Shown piece by piece: positions 603 through 31,529 of a stretch of 64,000 nucleotides of DNA (positions within the stretch are counted from its first letter, which is position 1; every line of letters starts with the position of its first letter). The notes beneath the pieces were generated by a model. That model ran no database searches and was not told the DNA's origin. It worked only from the letters and a program-made list of their open reading frames with translations. Made by a program: the position numbers and the translations under genes. Source of the DNA: a virus (taxonomy: Duplodnaviria > Caudoviricetes); the IMG/VR virus record IMGVR_UViG_3300037424_000993, positions 11,518-75,517 of that record, one strand, 5' to 3'.

Positions 603-1033
603 GAGGCACCGCCTTTCCGCGGAGGCCACGGATTGACCCGCACAGCTCCCCTGTATTGCCCGTAGTGAATAAGGCAAAGGTGACGATCCTCGCCTACTTC
701 ATGAGCGCAGTCGGGACACAGCGGAGCGTCGCAGGTTTTCCCGCCGCCCATTGGGTAATCGCAGAGCAGATCGGCAAAGTAGCCGCAGGTGCAAACGTCG
801 AGCTCGCCAGGCTTGAAGCTGCCACAGATGAACATCTCAGCGCCGCCGCCTGCCATTGTTTTCTCTCTTGCAATCTGGACTTCCAAAATCTCCTTTGGAG
901 TGCGCGTTACAAGCTGCCCTTTCACAACGTGACGCTTCTCGCTCTCGGAGGCCGGGTAACCATGGCCCCATCCCAATGCCTCTTTGGCTTCGTACAGAGA
1001 CGAAGGGCGCGACTTGCCTTTCAGGCAGGTCAC
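599..1033 (-). CDS. Cys/His-rich (Zn-binding) phage protein
   Basis: CTCGYFADLLCDYP...CDAPLCPDCAHEVGEDRHLCLIH; GTG start at 1033 overlaps the integrase stop (GTGA at 1030-1033); alternative start at 856. Confidence 0.6.
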   Translation of the reverse strand: MTCLKGKSRPSSLYEAKEALGWGHGYPASESEKRHVVKGQLVTRTPKEILEVQIAREKTMAGGGAEMFICGSFKPGELDVCTCGYFADLLCDYPMGGGKTCDAPLCPDCAHEVGEDRHLCLIHYGQYRGAVRVNPWPPRKGGAS

Positions 1034-2493
1034 TGGGCGCCTCCGGAGCAGGCTGTGATGCCCCACTTCTGACCGGGGATAACCTTGAGTCGGTGGGCTG
1101 TCTTGACGAGCCCCCGCAGAGGTGCCAAATACTGGGTGCGGATCCCACTATGGCCAGTATTCGCGTGCTCTAGCGAGTCTCCGCGAGGCGAAAACTCCGA
1201 AAACCCTAATAGTTGTAGCCGAAACCTGACCCTTGAGGTGCTAGTGGGGTAACTCCCGTGGAGGTTCGAGTCCTCTCCTTCGCACTGCAGGAAAACAGCT
1301 ACTTTAGGGCGGCCCGCGCACACCCCGAAAACGCGCTTTTCGACGCCGCCCCCAGTATCGCCCCCACTATTGCCGCTCACCAGGTCGACCACTTCGGCGG
1401 CCTGCTTCTCGTCGGCGTGGCTGTAGCGATTGGTCGTGCTCGCCTGCTTGTGGCCCACCAGGAAACCCACGCCCAGGGTCCGGCCGCCGCTTTGGTCCAT
1501 TAACTCGGTGGTCCGAGCATGGCGCATATCGTAGGCCTTCACCCGGCTGGCGATGTGCTCGGGGATGCCGGCGGCCCGAGCCGCCTGCCTGAGCGACGTG
1601 CGGTAGTCTAGTGTCCGGACCAGCTGGCCCCCATTCCGGAGCTGCCCGAGCCGGTGGATCTCGGCGTGGTAGCAGCCCTCGAGCAGTTCGCACGCGTGCG
1701 GGCTCAAAGGCACCTTTCGCTCCCAACGATTTTTATCGACATCCTCAGTCACGTCGAGGTGGCGCTGGCCCGGGTGCCAGTGGGTGCCAACGCGGAAGCC
1801 ATCCCAGAATCCCGGGCGTAGCGCCGTCTCGAACATCAGCGCGAAGTAGGGCCGGAGCGGCCATTGCTCGCCGCTCTTTCGGTTTTTGCGGCAAAGGTCG
1901 GGAAGGTGCGGAATCAGCTGGCGTGCCGTCGCCGCGGTGAATCCCTTGGTCCAGCCGCTCGGCGCTTGCTTAGCCTTGGTACCCAAGCTCTTGTGCGGGC
2001 GGTCAGGGAAGCGTGGGATCTGCCCGATCCAGCTCTTGATTTCAGCGAACTTCAACACCTGCATCAAAGTGCTCAGCTCCTTTTGCACCGTGCTGTACCG
2101 GACGCGCTTCAGGCGCTCGGATTGGTACGATGCGAGCGCTCCGCGCGTGACGTCGCACAGCCGCTTGAATCGCGGCAAAAGGTGCACGCGCAGATGAATC
2201 TTTCGCAGGTTCGCTGTTCGCTCCGTGATTTCACCACCGGACTTTTCGGCCAGGTACGCCGCTGCCACCTCCGACAGTTTCGCTGTCGGATCGTTGCCTG
2301 TCTGAACCTCGTTTTTCCACTGTCCGGAGTAGACCCAGTCGAGCCGATCCGCCTTCCACCGCGTAGCGCGCGCCAGATCGTCCGCTGGAATGACGGCCGT
2401 CTTGAAGTCGTGTCTCGTGCCCTCGTGCGTAAATCGCAAGCGCCACCATTTGCCGGTGTGCGTAAGCTGCGGATCGCCAGGCTTGCGCGCCAT
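1030..2493 (-). CDS. int: tyrosine recombinase / phage integrase with C-terminal extension spanning attP
   Basis: Catalytic motifs ETALRPG (R), DKNRWERKVPL (K), YDMRH, VGHKQASTTNRY (H, Y357); next to xis and the att core. Confidence 0.95.
   Translation of the reverse strand: MARKPGDPQLTHTGKWWRLRFTHEGTRHDFKTAVIPADDLARATRWKADRLDWVYSGQWKNEVQTGNDPTAKLSEVAAAYLAEKSGGEITERTANLRKIHLRVHLLPRFKRLCDVTRGALASYQSERLKRVRYSTVQKELSTLMQVLKFAEIKSWIGQIPRFPDRPHKSLGTKAKQAPSGWTKGFTAATARQLIPHLPDLCRKNRKSGEQWPLRPYFALMFETALRPGFWDGFRVGTHWHPGQRHLDVTEDVDKNRWERKVPLSPHACELLEGCYHAEIHRLGQLRNGGQLVRTLDYRTSLRQAARAAGIPEHIASRVKAYDMRHARTTELMDQSGGRTLGVGFLVGHKQASTTNRYSHADEKQAAEVVDLVSGNSGGDTGGGVEKRVFGVCAGRPKVAVFLQCEGEDSNLHGSYPTSTSRVRFRLQLLGFSEFSPRGDSLEHANTGHSGIRTQYLAPLRGLVKTAHRLKVIPGQKWGITACSGGAQ
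1124..1374. repeat. putative integrase arm-type sites (CCCA[C/G]TAT) on both sides of the att core
   Basis: CCCACTATGGCC 1144-1155, GCCAGTATTCGC 1153-1164, inverted CCCAGTATTTGGC 1124-1136, tandem CCCAGTATCGCC 1351-1362 and CCCACTATTGCC 1363-1374. Confidence 0.6.
1232..1284 (+). other. attP core: 3' half of tRNA-Leu(GAG), from anticodon loop to discriminator
   Basis: CTTGAGGTGCTAG-TGGGGTAACTCCCGT-GGAGGTTCGAGTCCTCT-CCTTCGCA: anticodon GAG, long variable arm, T-arm and 3' acceptor strand; the 5' half is absent. Confidence 0.9.
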
Positions 2494-2757
2494 TTAGGCT
2501 GCCCCTTCGAGTTCGGCTGCAATGTCCGCAATCTGCTTGCTCGAACGCACGAGGGCGCGCGCCTTCCTGCGGCGCTGTTTAGCCACAGTGGGCGTATGCG
2601 CGTGCTCGGTCATGTAGGCGTCCAGCTCGCTCGGTTTGAACATTGGTTTGCGTCCGATCATGTGTCGTTCGATCTTGGGGTACACGTGCTTACGGAACGT
2701 GGTGGGGCTCACCCGTAGATAGCGGGCCGCCTCCTCGAGCGTTAGGTACGGGCTCAT
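2494..2757 (-). CDS. xis: excisionase / HTH recombination directionality factor
   Basis: YLTLEEAARYLRVSPTTFRK...IGRKPMFKPSELDAYM winged-HTH pattern, directly upstream of int. Confidence 0.85.
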   Translation of the reverse strand: MSPYLTLEEAARYLRVSPTTFRKHVYPKIERHMIGRKPMFKPSELDAYMTEHAHTPTVAKQRRRKARALVRSSKQIADIAAELEGAA

Positions 2758-2781: not shown

Positions 2782-3741
2782 TCACCACTGCTCTTGCAGT
2801 CGTGCCCCGCTCTCACCGTGCTGGCCAGGCTTGCCCCACAGGGGCACGACCTTCGTTCGCTCTTCGATCTCATCGCAGACGCCGCGGAACGCGTCCTTGA
2901 CTGTCTGCCTGATGCGATGGAGCTCGACGAAGAAGCGGACCTGCCCGCCGCTCACCCGGTAACGCAGCCGCACCGGAAGCACGTAGGAACGCGCGGCATA
3001 CTCAAATATCGGCAGCTGGATCAGGAACAGGCTCGGCACCTTGACCTTGCCTCCGCCCCCGTCCTTGTGCTCTTCGACGAACGTCAACGTGCGCTCGCCG
3101 CTGTTGGTATTCGCTCTGTCGACGACCTTGCCCGTCGAGTGAATCTCGAGCCCTCCCGAGAGGGCGAGCACGTCTTGCGGCGATGCGATGGCCACGCCGA
3201 GTTTCGTAGCGAACGCCTGCGCATTTTGCGCGACCTGCGCGACTTCCGGATTGACCACGTCGACCACGTCGACGAAGCGCTCGTCAAGGAACAGTGCGAA
3301 CTCATCGACCGTGAAACCCAGCTTGCGATCCTGCGCTCGCTGCCAAGCCAAATACTCGTCCGAGAACGGCAGCGGCATGTGCGCGCCGAACGCCTCGAAG
3401 CGCGCCTCGCCATCGGGGCCGCCTCGGTGGGCGTCGTAGAGCGCTGTCACAGCTGGCGCATCGCGATCGAGGAATACCAGCGAGTGATCGTCCTTGAACT
3501 TGTTCACGTGCTCACAGAACGAGTCCAGGTCGCTAAGCGTGTAGATGCCCGTGCGACGCTCAGGCTCGGTGCGCAGTTCGTCCAGGAACGGCTTGAGCGA
3601 TTGGAGCCGCATCCCAGCCGGGACGCATGCCACGTTGCACTCGGCGCTGGTGCCTCGAGCTGCGGTCAAGGTTTCCGGCTTGAAGCCGTCTTTGAATAAC
3701 TGCGCAGCGGCAGCGGTTTCGGAAGCTGTATTATTTGCCAT
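2782..3741 (-). CDS. YfdQ / DUF2303 family phage protein
   Basis: 319 aa; C-terminal VPSLFLIQLPIFEY...LPVRLRYRVSGGQVRF pattern typical of DUF2303. Confidence 0.8.
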   Translation of the reverse strand: MANNTASETAAAAQLFKDGFKPETLTAARGTSAECNVACVPAGMRLQSLKPFLDELRTEPERRTGIYTLSDLDSFCEHVNKFKDDHSLVFLDRDAPAVTALYDAHRGGPDGEARFEAFGAHMPLPFSDEYLAWQRAQDRKLGFTVDEFALFLDERFVDVVDVVNPEVAQVAQNAQAFATKLGVAIASPQDVLALSGGLEIHSTGKVVDRANTNSGERTLTFVEEHKDGGGGKVKVPSLFLIQLPIFEYAARSYVLPVRLRYRVSGGQVRFFVELHRIRQTVKDAFRGVCDEIEERTKVVPLWGKPGQHGESGARLQEQW

Positions 3742-3778: not shown

Positions 3779-4171
3779 TCAGTTGAGTTTTTCGTCCTCG
3801 GCCTCGGCGAGAACGCGGGCATCCTTGTCAAACAGGTCTTCTTGGTGCATCTCTGGCGTGCTTTGGAGACGCCCGCCTTTGCCTACGAAGAACGTCGTTG
3901 CTGCCCGCTTCTTCGTCGGGAGCTTGCTAGTCAGCTTGTATTTCAGCTGGACCACGCCCTTTGCGTTGACCTCCGGCGATAGCACCAGGGTCACCGCACC
4001 GCCGCCGATCGTGCCGTCCTTGAGAGACGCCTCGACCTTGCTCGCGCGGATCACTTCGCGCAGCATTCGTTCTGCTTCCCACGGCAGGTCATCGATGCGC
4101 GACAGCGTGTCGAGGAACTCTTTCCCGTCGTCTTCCTGCTCGGCCAATATCTCGTCTGTGCTCTTTGCCAT
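3779..4171 (-). CDS. YfdP-like partner of the DUF2303 protein (130 aa)
   Basis: ATG at 4171 with GGAG RBS; G.VTLVL...LKYKLTSKLP.KKRAATTFFVGKGGRL...QEDLF pattern; usual position upstream of DUF2303. Confidence 0.65.
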   Translation of the reverse strand: MAKSTDEILAEQEDDGKEFLDTLSRIDDLPWEAERMLREVIRASKVEASLKDGTIGGGAVTLVLSPEVNAKGVVQLKYKLTSKLPTKKRAATTFFVGKGGRLQSTPEMHQEDLFDKDARVLAEAEDEKLN

Positions 4172-4239
4172 GCGTGAAACTCCTAAACTAGCCGCTAACC
4201 GCGGCCGGAAAGATTGCGCCGCTCCCGGGCGGCCGTTAG

Positions 4240-4589
4240 TGGACCCGCTGGGAATCGAACCCAGGTCCGCGAAGCCTACAAGCCATCGTCGTCCACATGC
4301 TTGGTCGAGGTACGGTCGGCTAGCCTCGACAGCCGTTGACGCCAGGGGGTCGGCGCCTCCACCACCCGCTATTTCTCGCTGGTCGCTCGCGGGATTGTTA
4401 CCAGCCAGCCCGTGTGGTGACGCCGCTGAGATACTCGGGCTCCTTGCCCAGCGACGGCTTAGGCCGCTTGCGCGACTTCGGCGATTGCGTTGGTATTCGC
4501 AATTGGAGTTGCTCATTTGGTCAAGCCGGTACGAGCGCCGGCTGCATGCACGATGACCCTTCGATTCCACGTCGAAACCATTCGGGCCC
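4240..4589 (-). ncRNA. ssrA: tmRNA (full length, one-piece), tag ANTNAIAEVAQAA
   Basis: 5' GGGCCCGAATGGTTTCGAC; 3' GGACCTGGGTTCGATTCCCAGCGGGTCCA; acceptor stem with G3-U70; pk1 AGCCGG/CCGGCT plus GCTC/GAGC; tag ORF 4500-4459 ending in AA-stop; AAGCATGT helix-2 motif. Confidence 0.93.
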
Positions 4590-4596
4590 AGAACGG

Positions 4597-4670
4597 TTGC
4601 GGGAGCCCGATTTGAACGGGCAACCTCTTGGTTATGAGCCAAGCGAGCTACCGGATTGCTCCATCCCGCA
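4597..4670 (-). tRNA. tRNA-Met(CAT), initiator-like variant
   Basis: TGCGGGATGGAGCAATCCGGTAGCTCGCTTGGCTCATAACCAAGAGGTTGCCCGTTCAAATCGGGCTCCCGCAA: full cloverleaf, A11-U24, A72-A73, TTCAAAT T-loop. Confidence 0.92.
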
Positions 4671-4812
4671 GTTGCACGGTGCCCACCGGCCGCCATGGCA
4701 ACCGGTGAGCTGGGCATCTGCCCGGAGACGCCCGTGCGCGCCCCTTCGTTCTCTGTTTTTACAAATAGGTGTGCTTGGATCGGCGTTTGCCGTCCGTTAG
4801 TCTGGAACTGGG

Positions 4813-5007
4813 TTAGCCGGTTGGTACCCGGACAACCCGCTTGTCGTTGAAGTACTCCCAGGGAAGCGTCTTCCCGTCGCGATCGAGTCCGCGCGGCTGA
4901 ATCGCAATACTCGTCGTTCCGTCCAGGTACGTGATCGCGGCAACGGCTGTGCCCGTGTATCCCGTGATCCTGTCCGTGACCTTGTCGCCTAACTCGATGT
5001 CTCCCAT
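4813..5007 (-). CDS. small conserved phage protein (SH3-like beta fold, 64 aa)
   Basis: IELGDKVTDRITGYTGTAVA...YLDG...IQP pattern; GGAG RBS. Confidence 0.7.
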   Translation of the reverse strand: MGDIELGDKVTDRITGYTGTAVAAITYLDGTTSIAIQPRGLDRDGKTLPWEYFNDKRVVRVPTG

Positions 5008-5214
5008 TGCTTTCTCCGTTTCCTTCCTCGAACGGCGTTAGCCGTCCGTTAGTAGCGCCGCCCGGTATCCCCCAGGCGGCCAAAGGGGCCGGTACCCGCC
5101 GGCACGGTCCAGACGGATCAATGCCCCGACGCTCTTGCGCGAGCAACGGTGACTCCCCGGATGGATTTAGTAGTCTGGTCACTTGCGCTGCCCTTCCGGC
5201 AATTCCCTGCCATT

Positions 5215-5424
5215 TCACGCCGCCGCCTCCCGCAGCATCTCCCGCAGCCGCAACACAGCAGCATGCGGCACCGGCGTCTTGCCAGCCTCCCAACGACGTA
5301 GAGTACGGTGTGAGCACTCGAGGTGATTCGCCGCGGCGAGCTCAGCCATGATGCCGCGACCGAATACTTGGAGGCGTAGAGCGCGGAATTCGCGGGCAGC
5401 GCGGTAGTGGATGGGGATTGTCAT
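5215..5424 (-). CDS. XRE-like HTH protein
   Basis: ELAAANHLECSHRTLRRWEAGKTPVP. Confidence 0.7.
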   Translation of the reverse strand: MTIPIHYRAAREFRALRLQVFGRGIMAELAAANHLECSHRTLRRWEAGKTPVPHAAVLRLREMLREAAA

Positions 5425-16689: not shown

Positions 16690-16845
16690 CGCTCTCCCCA
16701 CTGCCGCACAGGCAGCTTAGAAATGCTGGGTGTTGTTTTCACTCACTGCCGAATAGGCAGCTAGCAGTAGCGGGCCCGGATGGGCCCCGACCGACTTGAT
16801 ACTACAGTCGCTATTGAGCCCCCTTGGGGGCGGAAAGGAACGAGA

Positions 16846-29431: not shown

Positions 29432-29826
29432 GCTCGAACCCCGTAGACCCACCCATCGCGCTCATACTCACGAGCGAACCCGCGCTCAGCGTAGCGATGC
29501 CATCGCTCGGGTTTCACCGAGGTCTTGATTGGCTTACCTATCAGACTGGCGAACGCATCCCGCGTAGCTCCGAGCTCTGCGAACACACCCGCACCGCGAT
29601 ACGCCGGCCTCACATAGGCGCAATCGTACCAGACGGCCGCGCCTCGGTCGCTCAGTGAGCAGAACCCCAGCACCTCTCGCCCTCCACCATTGATCGCGAC
29701 GAACCACACCGAGCCCGGCTGACTGAAGAGTGGCCCGCCCACGTCCCGAACCACCTGACGCGAGCAAAAGAACTCGCCGATGCTGCGCCAGGGCTGTTGA
29801 GCGTGCGCGATGGTATCGATGATCAT
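29428..29826 (-). CDS. GNAT-family N-acetyltransferase
   Basis: LGFCSL...WYDCAYVRPAYRGAGVF (acetyl-CoA motif A)...YAERGF. Confidence 0.8.
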   Translation of the reverse strand: MIIDTIAHAQQPWRSIGEFFCSRQVVRDVGGPLFSQPGSVWFVAINGGGREVLGFCSLSDRGAAVWYDCAYVRPAYRGAGVFAELGATRDAFASLIGKPIKTSVKPERWHRYAERGFAREYERDGWVYGVRA

Positions 29827-31529
29827 GCGTCTACCGTGACGACGGTTCGCCGCTCAACCTTGACCGACCACCGAACTTTGCGATCAGAGGCTTTGCCGCC
29901 AACCGTAGGCTGACAGGTGATGTATTGATTACCAGTGTCCTCAGCAAACTGCATGTCCAGCCCGCTCGTGGTAGCGGCGCCAGAGCTCAACACCTCGCCA
30001 AGCTCCACGTCTTCGCCGGAACGACGGCGGGCGGGAACCAAATATTTCCCATTCTCGTCAATGCTTCCGTCGTTGGTTTCCACGGTAACGTGGAACTCGT
30101 AAGTGAACCCTTCCGACAGCGCGACTGCGTTACCCGCCTTGTCGCGAAGCAGCGAACTCGCCGCTGGTGAATCCGCGGTGTCGACCTCGACGCTGAACGA
30201 GTCGACTGTTTCAGCCTGCGCGTATTGAGTCGTGTGGCGGATTCGGCTAACGGCTGTGCCTTCGCGCTCGACCTCCTCATAGGTTGCCCCAGCGCCGTCC
30301 GCGTCGGTTCTTGTGCGGCGCGTGAGCACGTCGCCGGTGGCCGTCTCGTCCCAGAGCTTTTCGTTCGTGCCAGCGCCGGACTCGAAGTGTTCGAGCGGCG
30401 CATCCGTGAGCCTCAGGTCTTGACTGACTTCAACTTGCGCTGAGGTGACGGATACAACGACTGCACCGCCTGCGAGGATATCGACGTTCGTTAGCGCTCT
30501 GACAGTAGCCGTCGGGACGGTCGAACCTCCCCACTCGGCAGTGTCTGTGCCAGCCGCGCCCCACGAAAAGAAACGGTGATTCGCGTTGTCAGCGTTGTTC
30601 CTGCCGTTCCCGCTGTGGTTGTGAGGCACGCGGTAGTTGCCGGTTGTCGCGACAACACCGAAAAACGCTAGCGATGAAAACCCAGCTATCGACGTCCAAC
30701 CCGACACGTTGCCCGAGTCGTCCTCGGTTGCCGAGGACATCTGCGTAGCGCGGCCACTAGTGCCGTCGAATCGTACTAGGCGGTTGTCGGCAACGGCTCC
30801 GGGGGCGAGGGTGTACTGGGTGTGAGGATCGCCTGTTGTGAGACCGGTAAGCGAGTTGTGTGCGTGGTTGTGGCTGGTATCCGACTTGTTGCCCAGAGCC
30901 GCGTCTACCCCGATAAAGTGCCCACCAATCGTGCTCGAATCCGGCGTGTAGTTGGTGGGGCTAGCGGCGTAGGCGAGGTTGCCGCCGTCGAGTGCGTCTC
31001 CACCGCCGTCTTCGTGAGTGGAGGCGTGGGCGTTCGGATCGCGCGGGTCGCCTGAATCGTCGAGCGTTGCGTCAGTAACGATTGCGTTCAGTTCGGCAAG
31101 CGTGGAGAAGGAGGTGCCGGCAGGCAGATTGCCGATCTCGGTGTACTTCTTGCTGTCGCCGTCTTCGCTGTCCTCGATCAGCACCTTGTCGGCGCTGACT
31201 GGCGCTGCCTTCTCGGCGATTGCGGCGATTTCGCCAGCTACGTTGTCGTGGATGGCGTCGGTGTCCGATCCCGCACCGCCGCCGACCGTGATCCAAGACG
31301 ACCCGTCCCAGATCGACAGCACCCCCGTGTCGGTAGCGAAGTAGGTGTCGAAGACGATCGTACTCGACGCAGGTCTAGCTGCGGCTAGCCCGTAGTTTTT
31401 CCACAGCGTTGACGCGACGATATCGATCAGTGCCTGACCAACGCGCGCGGCCGTGTTCGCGCCAGCGCTGGTCTCATCATGGATAACGTCGGCAGCTGCG
31501 TCCGCTGTTGGTCGTGATACTTCAGCCAT
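29823..31529 (-). CDS. tail fibre protein
   Basis: 568 aa Gly/Asp/Thr-rich mosaic directly after the baseplate gene. Confidence 0.65.
   Translation of the reverse strand: MAEVSRPTADAAADVIHDETSAGANTAARVGQALIDIVASTLWKNYGLAAARPASSTIVFDTYFATDTGVLSIWDGSSWITVGGGAGSDTDAIHDNVAGEIAAIAEKAAPVSADKVLIEDSEDGDSKKYTEIGNLPAGTSFSTLAELNAIVTDATLDDSGDPRDPNAHASTHEDGGGDALDGGNLAYAASPTNYTPDSSTIGGHFIGVDAALGNKSDTSHNHAHNSLTGLTTGDPHTQYTLAPGAVADNRLVRFDGTSGRATQMSSATEDDSGNVSGWTSIAGFSSLAFFGVVATTGNYRVPHNHSGNGRNNADNANHRFFSWGAAGTDTAEWGGSTVPTATVRALTNVDILAGGAVVVSVTSAQVEVSQDLRLTDAPLEHFESGAGTNEKLWDETATGDVLTRRTRTDADGAGATYEEVEREGTAVSRIRHTTQYAQAETVDSFSVEVDTADSPAASSLLRDKAGNAVALSEGFTYEFHVTVETNDGSIDENGKYLVPARRRSGEDVELGEVLSSGAATTSGLDMQFAEDTGNQYITCQPTVGGKASDRKVRWSVKVERRTVVTVDA

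Follow-up and report, generated by a model that had tools for sequence, protein, structure and literature searches.

The stretch of viral DNA considered here (the window; 64,000 nt, bases 11518-75517 of the 75,517-bp IMG/VR record IMGVR_UViG_3300037424_000993) carries a tRNA-Met gene and, just after it on the minus strand, a gene for a transfer-messenger RNA (tmRNA, ssrA). The locus raises two questions: whether the tmRNA is a working gene of the phage, and whether the two RNAs belong together as one unit. The explanation that we favour, and which as a whole we consider likely, is that of a genuine, selectively maintained tmRNA gene of a temperate tailed phage with a probable Myxococcota host; the tRNA-Met is a separable neighbour, and a fixed or obligate two-part cassette is not supported. 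Positions given below are those of the window unless another sequence is named.

The tmRNA gene is full-length. ARAGORN called it at 4239-4589 on the minus strand, with a tag peptide of ANTNAIAEVAQAA followed by a stop codon, and Rfam family RF00023 matched 4237-4589 with 95.2 bits (gathering threshold 47, E 8e-36) over model positions 1-374, uncut. Both programs had been proposed as checks in an earlier reading made from the letters alone (the sequence-only reading): ARAGORN called the tmRNA and the tRNA-Met alike, and the covariance model did not fail on the internal region but matched the RNA over its full length. A one-piece gene with a G3-U70 acceptor stem, a first pseudoknot and a GCG resume codon at 4500, as that reading had described it, is likewise found by the two programs and by inspection of the sequence. 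The acceptor stem pairs GGGCCCG with CGGGUCC, G3:U70 included, and carries a discriminator A. The gene encodes CUA at its 3' end, not CCA, so that CCA would be added post-transcriptionally; the mature RNA probably extends from 4589 as far as the discriminator A (4240). The length of 350 nt proposed earlier needs a small correction, the gene measuring 351-353 nt according to how the CUA tail is counted. The T-arm (CUGGG/CCCAG) closes a loop of the UUCGAUU type, the D-loop analogue GGUUUCGACG is present, and the three segments of H2 are all paired (CGAAG/CUUCG, GGUCAUCGU/ACGAUGGCU and GCAUGC/GCAUGU). Pseudoknot 1 (PK1; 4511-4542, GCCGG/CCGGC and GCUCGU/AUGAGC) lies directly upstream of the resume codon, and the tag reading frame of 13 codons (4459-4500) runs from GCG at 4498-4500 to UAA at 4459-4461; the resume context, AAUU before GCG, is common to the phage tmRNA and host tmRNAs. 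Pseudoknots 2, 3 and 4 follow at 4407-4458, 4365-4405 and 4304-4335, with 8/9, 6/6, 6/6, 5/5, 5/5 and 7/7 pairs formed. In the structure as drawn, comprising acceptor, T-arm, H2 and the four H-type pseudoknots PK1-PK4, 80 of the 81 pairs are standard.

No close bacterial source of the gene was found: a BLAST search of 401 Myxococcota genomes matched the tRNA part of the query alone, and the tmRNAs of the candidate hosts discussed below share no more than 51-57% identity with that of the phage. In viral collections, blastn against INPHARED returned the tRNA part only, with no record matching the tmRNA, and exact and tag-based patterns for close relatives had no match in viral contigs. More than 119 stretches of viral contigs fitted a motif describing the 3' acceptor end, and ARAGORN was applied to 81 loci, namely 79 from this motif, one further viral contig (L034) and one metagenome contig (L035). 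A tmRNA was called on 52 of these 81 loci, most of which are IMG/VR loci chosen by that one motif; 34 calls were one-piece. Together with the published count of tmRNAs in 402 of 18,146 phage genomes (2.3%), in 133 distinct forms (PMC9004378), this makes phage tmRNAs commoner than the sequence-only reading implied when it called them uncommon. Eighteen calls among the 79 IMG/VR loci (L036-L114) were two-piece (permuted) tmRNAs, and several tags were 25-30 residues long; some of the tmRNAs on these loci are probably host ssrA genes at provirus borders, and others lie within phage tRNA clusters.

The closest relatives found are phage-borne, at 60-65% identity: those of L064, a complete 186.7-kb phage with terminal repeats, of L042, and of L085, which lies in a provirus (G407) that shares 57% large-terminase identity with the window phage. 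When the four sequences were aligned on the structure of the window tmRNA, 78.9% of cells paired and 28 pairs had changed on both sides, against 3-9 two-sided changes in slid controls; the observed values were reached in none of 500 shuffles. Covariation is clear in the T-arm, H2b, H2d, both stems of PK1 (which covary in all three relatives), PK2 stem 2 and PK3, and the acceptor and T-arm pairs are conserved or compensated across the relatives.

Variation is also seen closer to the window. Four contigs (L016-L019) carry a tmRNA identical to that of the window, and in two DNA runs (X3 and X4) a 355-nt contig spanning exactly 4239-4593 differs at 7-9 bases and represents a second allele. Three of its changes fall outside the tag frame, all at unpaired positions (the H2 bulge, the PK3 loop and the PK2 linker), and six fall within the 42-nt tag frame. 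These data bear on the suggestion that the tmRNA was recently captured from a bacterium and is useless to the phage but as yet undecayed. Copies are 98-100% identical across samples, and recent spread alone could explain their intactness; against this stand the lack of a close bacterial source among 401 Myxococcota genomes, the compensatory changes in the phage-borne relatives, the presence of a related tmRNA in a phage of only 57% terminase identity, and allele differences that avoid helices. We regard such a neutral passenger as very improbable, and the comparative evidence argues for a gene that is likely maintained by selection as an RNA.

The genome that carries the tmRNA is bounded by direct terminal repeats of 127 bp, and CheckV rates it as 100% complete. 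Its genes include those for a large terminase, portal, head protease, major head protein, tape-measure protein and helicase, along with a single tyrosine integrase (1030-2493, minus strand; the only one in the genome) and an excisionase-like HTH_17 gene (2494-2757, minus strand). On these grounds the record represents the whole genome of a temperate tailed phage. The core of its attachment site (attP) is the 3' half of a tRNA-Leu(GAG) gene, at 1232-1284 on the plus strand within the integrase open reading frame (ORF). A 45-nt stretch of the core exactly matches three Myxococcota metagenome-assembled genomes (MAGs), in all of which it forms the 3' portion of a complete tRNA-Leu(GAG), and contigs of four other DNA runs diverge from the phage at 1232-1236 and 1273-1287, the borders of the core. 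As the core sits in the 3' part of the integrase ORF, integration should alter the C-terminus of the integrase. One of the MAGs (contig CAWELQ010000018.1) has, besides the full tRNA-Leu(GAG) gene (L002:72-155), a fragment-only copy of its 3' half 11.4 kb downstream (L004:3547-3591), which would indicate another integrated element or island at the same site.

Since ssrA is a common integration target (PMC4383910), a tmRNA sequence close to an integrase could be an att-site relic, or alternatively a decoy that soaks up SmpB and inhibits trans-translation of the host, as the RNA of mycobacteriophage DS6A, which consists of the tRNA-like domain only, inhibits tmRNA (PMC4131195). Both readings were rejected: the whole gene is present, the crossover core lies in tRNA-Leu, and the genome's sole integrase is accounted for by that core. 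The tmRNA is thus not an att remnant, and the sequence-only reading was correct both in describing an intact copy in place of a 3' att fragment and in assigning the att core to a different RNA. The 3' end of the phage tmRNA also differs from the ssrA ends of the candidate hosts in T-stem and acceptor, and tag frame and pseudoknots are intact; relic and decoy together are extremely unlikely. A candidate-host MAG (L009; G002:C93:16642-16964) holds a second, host-like tmRNA match of 101 bits that is without both acceptor ends and was not called by ARAGORN; a pseudogene, the border of an island or contamination of the bin could each account for it. The host of the phage is probably a member of the Myxococcota (Polyangiaceae-like).

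Several points weigh against the favoured explanation. The phage tmRNA scores 95 bits with Rfam, compared to ~133 bits for the candidate hosts' own tmRNAs, and its tag ends in QAA instead of the usual hydrophobic-Ala-Ala; Ala-Ala is retained, and proteolytic function is uncertain. PK4 and H2a have no comparative support in the four-sequence alignment, which is poor in these parts, and PK4 was drawn in the window sequence only. A consensus scan near the RNAs found neither a sigma-70-like promoter nor an intrinsic terminator. Finally, the assignment of the host draws solely on the match of the att core and the similarity of the tRNA.

The tRNA upstream of the tmRNA was called by ARAGORN as tRNA-Met(cat) at 4595-4670 on the minus strand and matched by Rfam RF00005 at 4597-4670 with 64.6 bits, in agreement with the earlier description of a full tRNA-Met(CAT). 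Its discriminator A at 4597 is followed by an encoded CC, and its pairs include U1:A72 and A11:U24, with an anticodon stem of CUUGG/CCAAG. From U1:A72 and this stem it could be taken for an elongator, a reading that was overturned by alignment with the initiators of Myxococcota (six matches to canonical initiator genes, some of them in tandem copies), of which the best are 78-85% identical to the phage tRNA. The phage tRNA and these initiators have in common A11:U24, the acceptor sequence xGCGGG, the T-loop, G30:C40 and G31:C39. Within the anticodon stem (U29:A41, G30:C40, G31:C39) two of the three consecutive G:C pairs of initiators are kept, and compensated changes give the phage tRNA two pairs, U28:A42 and U29:A41, that set it apart from the host initiators. 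For E. coli initiators, G30:C40, the middle one of the three G:C pairs, is essential and also sufficient, and the first pair is known to vary in nature (PMC5389676). The natural variants in alphaproteobacteria and mycoplasmas have A:U at 29:41, whereas the phage has U:A, a pyrimidine-purine pair. Compared to bacterial tRNA-fMet, the phage tRNA thus shares the CAU anticodon, the pairs and acceptor sequence named above and a UUCAAAU T-loop, but has a Watson-Crick U1:A72 in place of the C1xA72 mismatch, a determinant for the formylase. Two of the aligned host initiators (G280 and G070) also have U1:A72, and the mismatch rule may therefore be relaxed in this lineage. By its alignment the tRNA-Met is an initiator-type variant, as the sequence-only reading had labelled it.

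Whether the two RNAs form one unit is a separate matter. The spacer between the tRNA discriminator and the tmRNA +1 at 4589 is CCGUUCU (4590-4596), which confirms the 7-nt gap reported before. In a mosaic relative (L018), however, the tmRNA and its downstream flank are 100% identical to the window while the tRNA-Met is absent upstream; identity starts just 4 nt before the tmRNA +1, and a contig from ENA has the same gene order. In this type of relative, positions 4594-5213 (620 bp) are replaced by 191 unrelated bases. Contigs of two soil runs (X8 and X9) join 4593 to 5214 across 191 other letters, and a third run (X3) has the same upstream sequence as a loose end. Because L018 and X8/X9 swap the segment with the tRNA-Met and keep an identical tmRNA, 4594-5213 is an exchangeable segment; the tmRNA goes with the yfdP-yfdQ-xis-int arm. 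The segment comprises, on the minus strand, the tRNA-Met, a structured 142-nt leader and a 64-amino-acid (aa) ORF (4813-5007, phrog_16275), and its other border coincides exactly with the end of a small helix-turn-helix gene (5215-5424, minus strand). In the place of the tRNA-Met, L018 has a degenerate tRNA-like element (L018:3299-3373) 94 nt from the tmRNA, with a 6-nt anticodon loop; it falls under the Rfam tRNA threshold, its 3' strand CGGGUAC is a near-match to the 3' strand of the tmRNA acceptor, and the model for permuted tmRNAs gives 37.7 bits across the element and the 5' part of the tmRNA.

A pattern for an initiator-type tRNA with a tmRNA within 33 nt, validated on the window, was used to scan 2.9 million viral contigs and a metagenome collection. 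It was found elsewhere on one viral contig and one metagenome contig, in scans that may have left out records near-identical to the window phage. The metagenome contig is 1.5 kb long and bacterial-looking, with the tag ANNDYALAA and 185 bits. The viral contig, L034, is an unrelated phage fragment (91 kb, about half complete, GC 55%) with no integrase or SmpB in the portion examined. Near one of its ends (L034:10256-11029) it carries a U1:A72 initiator-like tRNA-Met with U:G as third stem pair, a tmRNA (108.6 bits) 14 nt after it, and then a tRNA-Glu. More generally, a same-strand tRNA lies within 100 nt upstream of 6 of the 34 one-piece tmRNAs. As these tRNAs vary in identity (Leu, Glu, Asn, Ala), tRNA adjacency is a recurring layout of phage tRNA clusters; the particular pairing with tRNA-Met is rare and dispensable.

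The sequence-only reading had proposed that initiator tRNA and tmRNA make up one co-selected counter-defence cassette: the tRNA would make good the initiator tRNA that VapC-type toxins cut, and the tmRNA would clear ribosomes stalled on mRNAs cut by RelE-type toxins or abortive-infection nucleases. The tightness of the tandem is in keeping with this proposal, as are the two compensated pairs beside the anticodon loop that set the tRNA-Met apart from host initiators, the similar arrangement in the unrelated L034, and the published idea of phage tRNAs that resist host tRNA nucleases (PMC10264068, PMC11555353). Those defence-bypassing tRNAs are, like the window tRNA, phage copies of host tRNAs that differ near the anticodon loop, but they are elongators with changes in the loop and the window tRNA is initiator-type; where VapC targets tRNA-fMet, phages as a rule avoid carrying a gene for it (PMC10264068). 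No nuclease of this kind is known from the host of the window phage. Weighing against the cassette are the absence of the tRNA-Met from a near-identical relative that retains the tmRNA, the low yield of the tandem scans with the reservation given above, and the varied tRNAs upstream of other one-piece tmRNAs. The proposal was to fall if the tandem proved decayed or absent in close relatives, and the outcome is divided: the tRNA-Met is missing in L018, X8 and X9, and the tmRNA is intact there; the search in related phages yielded one unrelated tandem, and found the tandem absent in the near-identical relative. Co-selection of the two RNAs, with the toxin-related roles assigned to them, is weakened by these results and appears distinctly unlikely, and because close relatives do without the tRNA, the two genes are better described as separable neighbours.

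The tag offers a further clue to what the tmRNA may do. The window tag ends in Ala-Gln-Ala-Ala, with a polar residue at position -3. The phage relatives L064, L042 and L085 have the tags ANDNATPALAVDKAA, ANDNSTPLAAKAA and ANDNVTPLEAAA, and the tag of L034 reads ANNVVPFPTASVTPVAKAA at the aligned resume codon, a reading that replaces ARAGORN's own, implausible one; the ends in these phages are DKAA, AKAA, LEAAA and AKAA. The tags of candidate hosts are ANDNAVALAA or ANDNALVMAA (ends ALAA and VMAA), and 20 of the 34 one-piece tags on the examined loci (33 viral contigs and one metagenome contig) end in LAA. In the second allele the six changes within the frame are AAU to AAC and GCC to GCG, both synonymous, and ACC to GAC (Thr to Asp) and GUC to ACC (Val to Thr), both codons replaced by double-nucleotide changes. 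The resulting tag is ANDNAIAETAQAA, with frame, stop and AQAA end retained. The tag frame makes up 12% of the length and holds six of the nine changes, far above what an even spread would produce; a simple binomial, which treats neighbouring changes as independent although they are not, puts the chance at ~2 in 10,000.

These features could reflect a reprogrammed tag, whereby the phage tmRNA competes with that of the host and the polar residue before Ala-Ala is handled differently by host proteases or adaptors, so that products of stalled translation would be spared or re-routed during phage growth. The contrast between phage and candidate-host tag ends, the prevalence of LAA and the clustering of allele changes in the tag with AQAA kept are in line with this idea, as is the published description in which recognition by ClpX depends critically on the final three residues, LAA, and a DAS ending minimises ClpX binding (PMC9382460). 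On the other hand, the terminal Ala-Ala is kept and ClpX may still bind, and the pattern of polar ends comes from five sequences only, picked by similarity, and is a lead, not a result. The clustered changes could also be a recombination patch, since the variant AAC GAC equals the host-type ANDN codons. Reprogramming of the tag is rather unlikely on present evidence; it is compatible with the favoured explanation as an added layer. A broader joint reading would hold that the tmRNA belongs to a phage-specific lineage with a polar residue before Ala-Ala (QAA, KAA, EAAA) and with tag codons that change faster than the rest, that it serves a takeover of trans-translation that alters the fate of rescued proteins beyond adding capacity, and that it moves as a self-contained module bounded exactly by the RNA ends. 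As a whole this picture is unlikely.

Under the favoured explanation, the tmRNA would be a discrete module in a leftward operon that leads from the genetic switch to yfdP-yfdQ-xis-int, and would most likely be co-transcribed with it; as nothing upstream of -4 is shared with L018, no private promoter travels with the tmRNA. It would be excised in the manner of a tRNA, by RNase P at the 5' end, 3' trimming and addition of CCA. A single RNase P cut at the tmRNA +1 would also leave the tRNA-Met with a short 3' trailer, and the tRNA-Met would in this way share precursor and processing as a neighbour that is independent and exchangeable, with no obligate tie to the tmRNA. Host alanyl-tRNA synthetase would recognize G3:U70 and A73 and charge the tmRNA, which together with host SmpB and EF-Tu would free ribosomes stalled on broken mRNAs; the rescued chains would receive the tag ANTNAIAEVAQAA, or ANDNAIAETAQAA with the second allele. 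The phage would gain extra rescue capacity during infection or induction, and possibly an altered fate of the tagged proteins. No gene for SmpB was found anywhere in the 75.5-kb record, which extends the statement of the sequence-only reading that none lies in the window, so the host would have to provide this protein. Downstream of the tmRNA, the 67-nt stretch before yfdP has no more stable a predicted fold than shuffled sequence. The leader before the tRNA-Met (4671-4812, minus strand) has a predicted folding energy of -61.7 kcal/mol (z = -3.5), and a 13-bp hairpin in it ends ~10 nt before the tRNA and might be a processing or pause site.

The surroundings of the two RNAs match those described earlier (small ORFs, then yfdP/yfdQ-xis-int, leftward). 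The order, all on the minus strand, is small regulatory genes, the 64-aa ORF, tRNA-Met, tmRNA, a YfdP-family gene (3779-4171; PF27127, phrog_204; 67 nt downstream of the tmRNA), a DUF2303/YfdQ-like gene (2782-3741), excisionase and integrase. The same gene arrangement is found on 16 contigs that share the YfdP protein and in 24 sediment and soil DNA runs; the sequencing runs listed with the sequence included no RNA run. A search for related loci in viral and genome collections returned no relatives of the YfdQ protein, and the corresponding search with the YfdP protein returned its own cluster only. Elsewhere in the window, an intergenic stretch (16693-16767, plus strand) contains an exact type I-F repeat-like sequence of the clustered regularly interspaced short palindromic repeats (CRISPR) kind (Rfam CRISPR-DR4, 36 bits, 16699-16723), with a degenerate second hairpin, CTGCCGAATAGGCAG, 45 nt downstream and no further copy in the window. 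This element might represent a lone repeat unit, act as an RNA anti-CRISPR or form a mini-array; it would point to a host that has a type I-F system. A tRNA-Arg(gcg) of 89 nt called by ARAGORN only (30964-31052, plus strand) is probably false, as it lies antisense inside a 568-aa ORF (29823-31529, minus strand) and Rfam does not detect it.

The carriers of tmRNA among the mycobacteriophages and phage G are known as large phages with many tRNA genes, and mostly lytic. By 2014, tmRNAs had been listed for mycobacteriophages Bxz1, Cali, Catera, Rizal, ScottMcG, Spud, ET08 and Wildcat and for Bacillus phage G, and smpB had been found in none of the viral genomes searched (PMC4131195). Like these tmRNAs, that of the window is full-length and phage-encoded and would presumably use host SmpB. 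Unlike those carriers, the window phage is a temperate phage of 75.5 kb with a single tRNA, and its tmRNA, within the integration arm, has regulatory genes on one side and yfdP-yfdQ-xis-int on the other. Huge phages carry both tmRNA and SmpB (PMC7162821), whereas the window phage is without SmpB. Methylophage Melnitz has a permuted two-piece tmRNA behind a riboswitch (PMC9004378), in contrast to the one-piece gene described here, and Bradyrhizobium elkanii phages also carry tmRNA (PMC12656738). The ssrA 3' fragments collected by Islander at attP sites (PMC4383910) are similar in being tmRNA-derived sequences near int and xis of an integrating element; the window phage, however, has the whole gene, and its att core, the 3' half of tRNA-Leu(GAG), is ~3 kb away. 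Roles proposed for phage tmRNAs include keeping a hijacked translation apparatus running, selective tagging and sensing of the state of the host (PMC9004378, PMC7162821, PMC12656738, PMC4131195), and these are also the candidate roles for the tmRNA of the window.

Phage tmRNAs are an established class. This one is less usual in belonging to a temperate phage with a probable myxobacterial host, in lying within the integration arm beside a single tRNA, and in its tag ending. In part the outcome is an ordinary gain in annotation, two RNA genes having been missed by an ORF-based track. Public metagenomes nevertheless hold a natural experiment, with the tmRNA accompanied by the initiator tRNA, the tmRNA without it, and two alleles of the tag, and the unusual tag ends raise the question of whether a phage tmRNA can free the ribosome and still spare the rescued protein. 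Provided that the gene is functional, even a mid-sized temperate phage of soil myxobacteria would bring along trans-translation, a trait that has mostly been described in large lytic phages.

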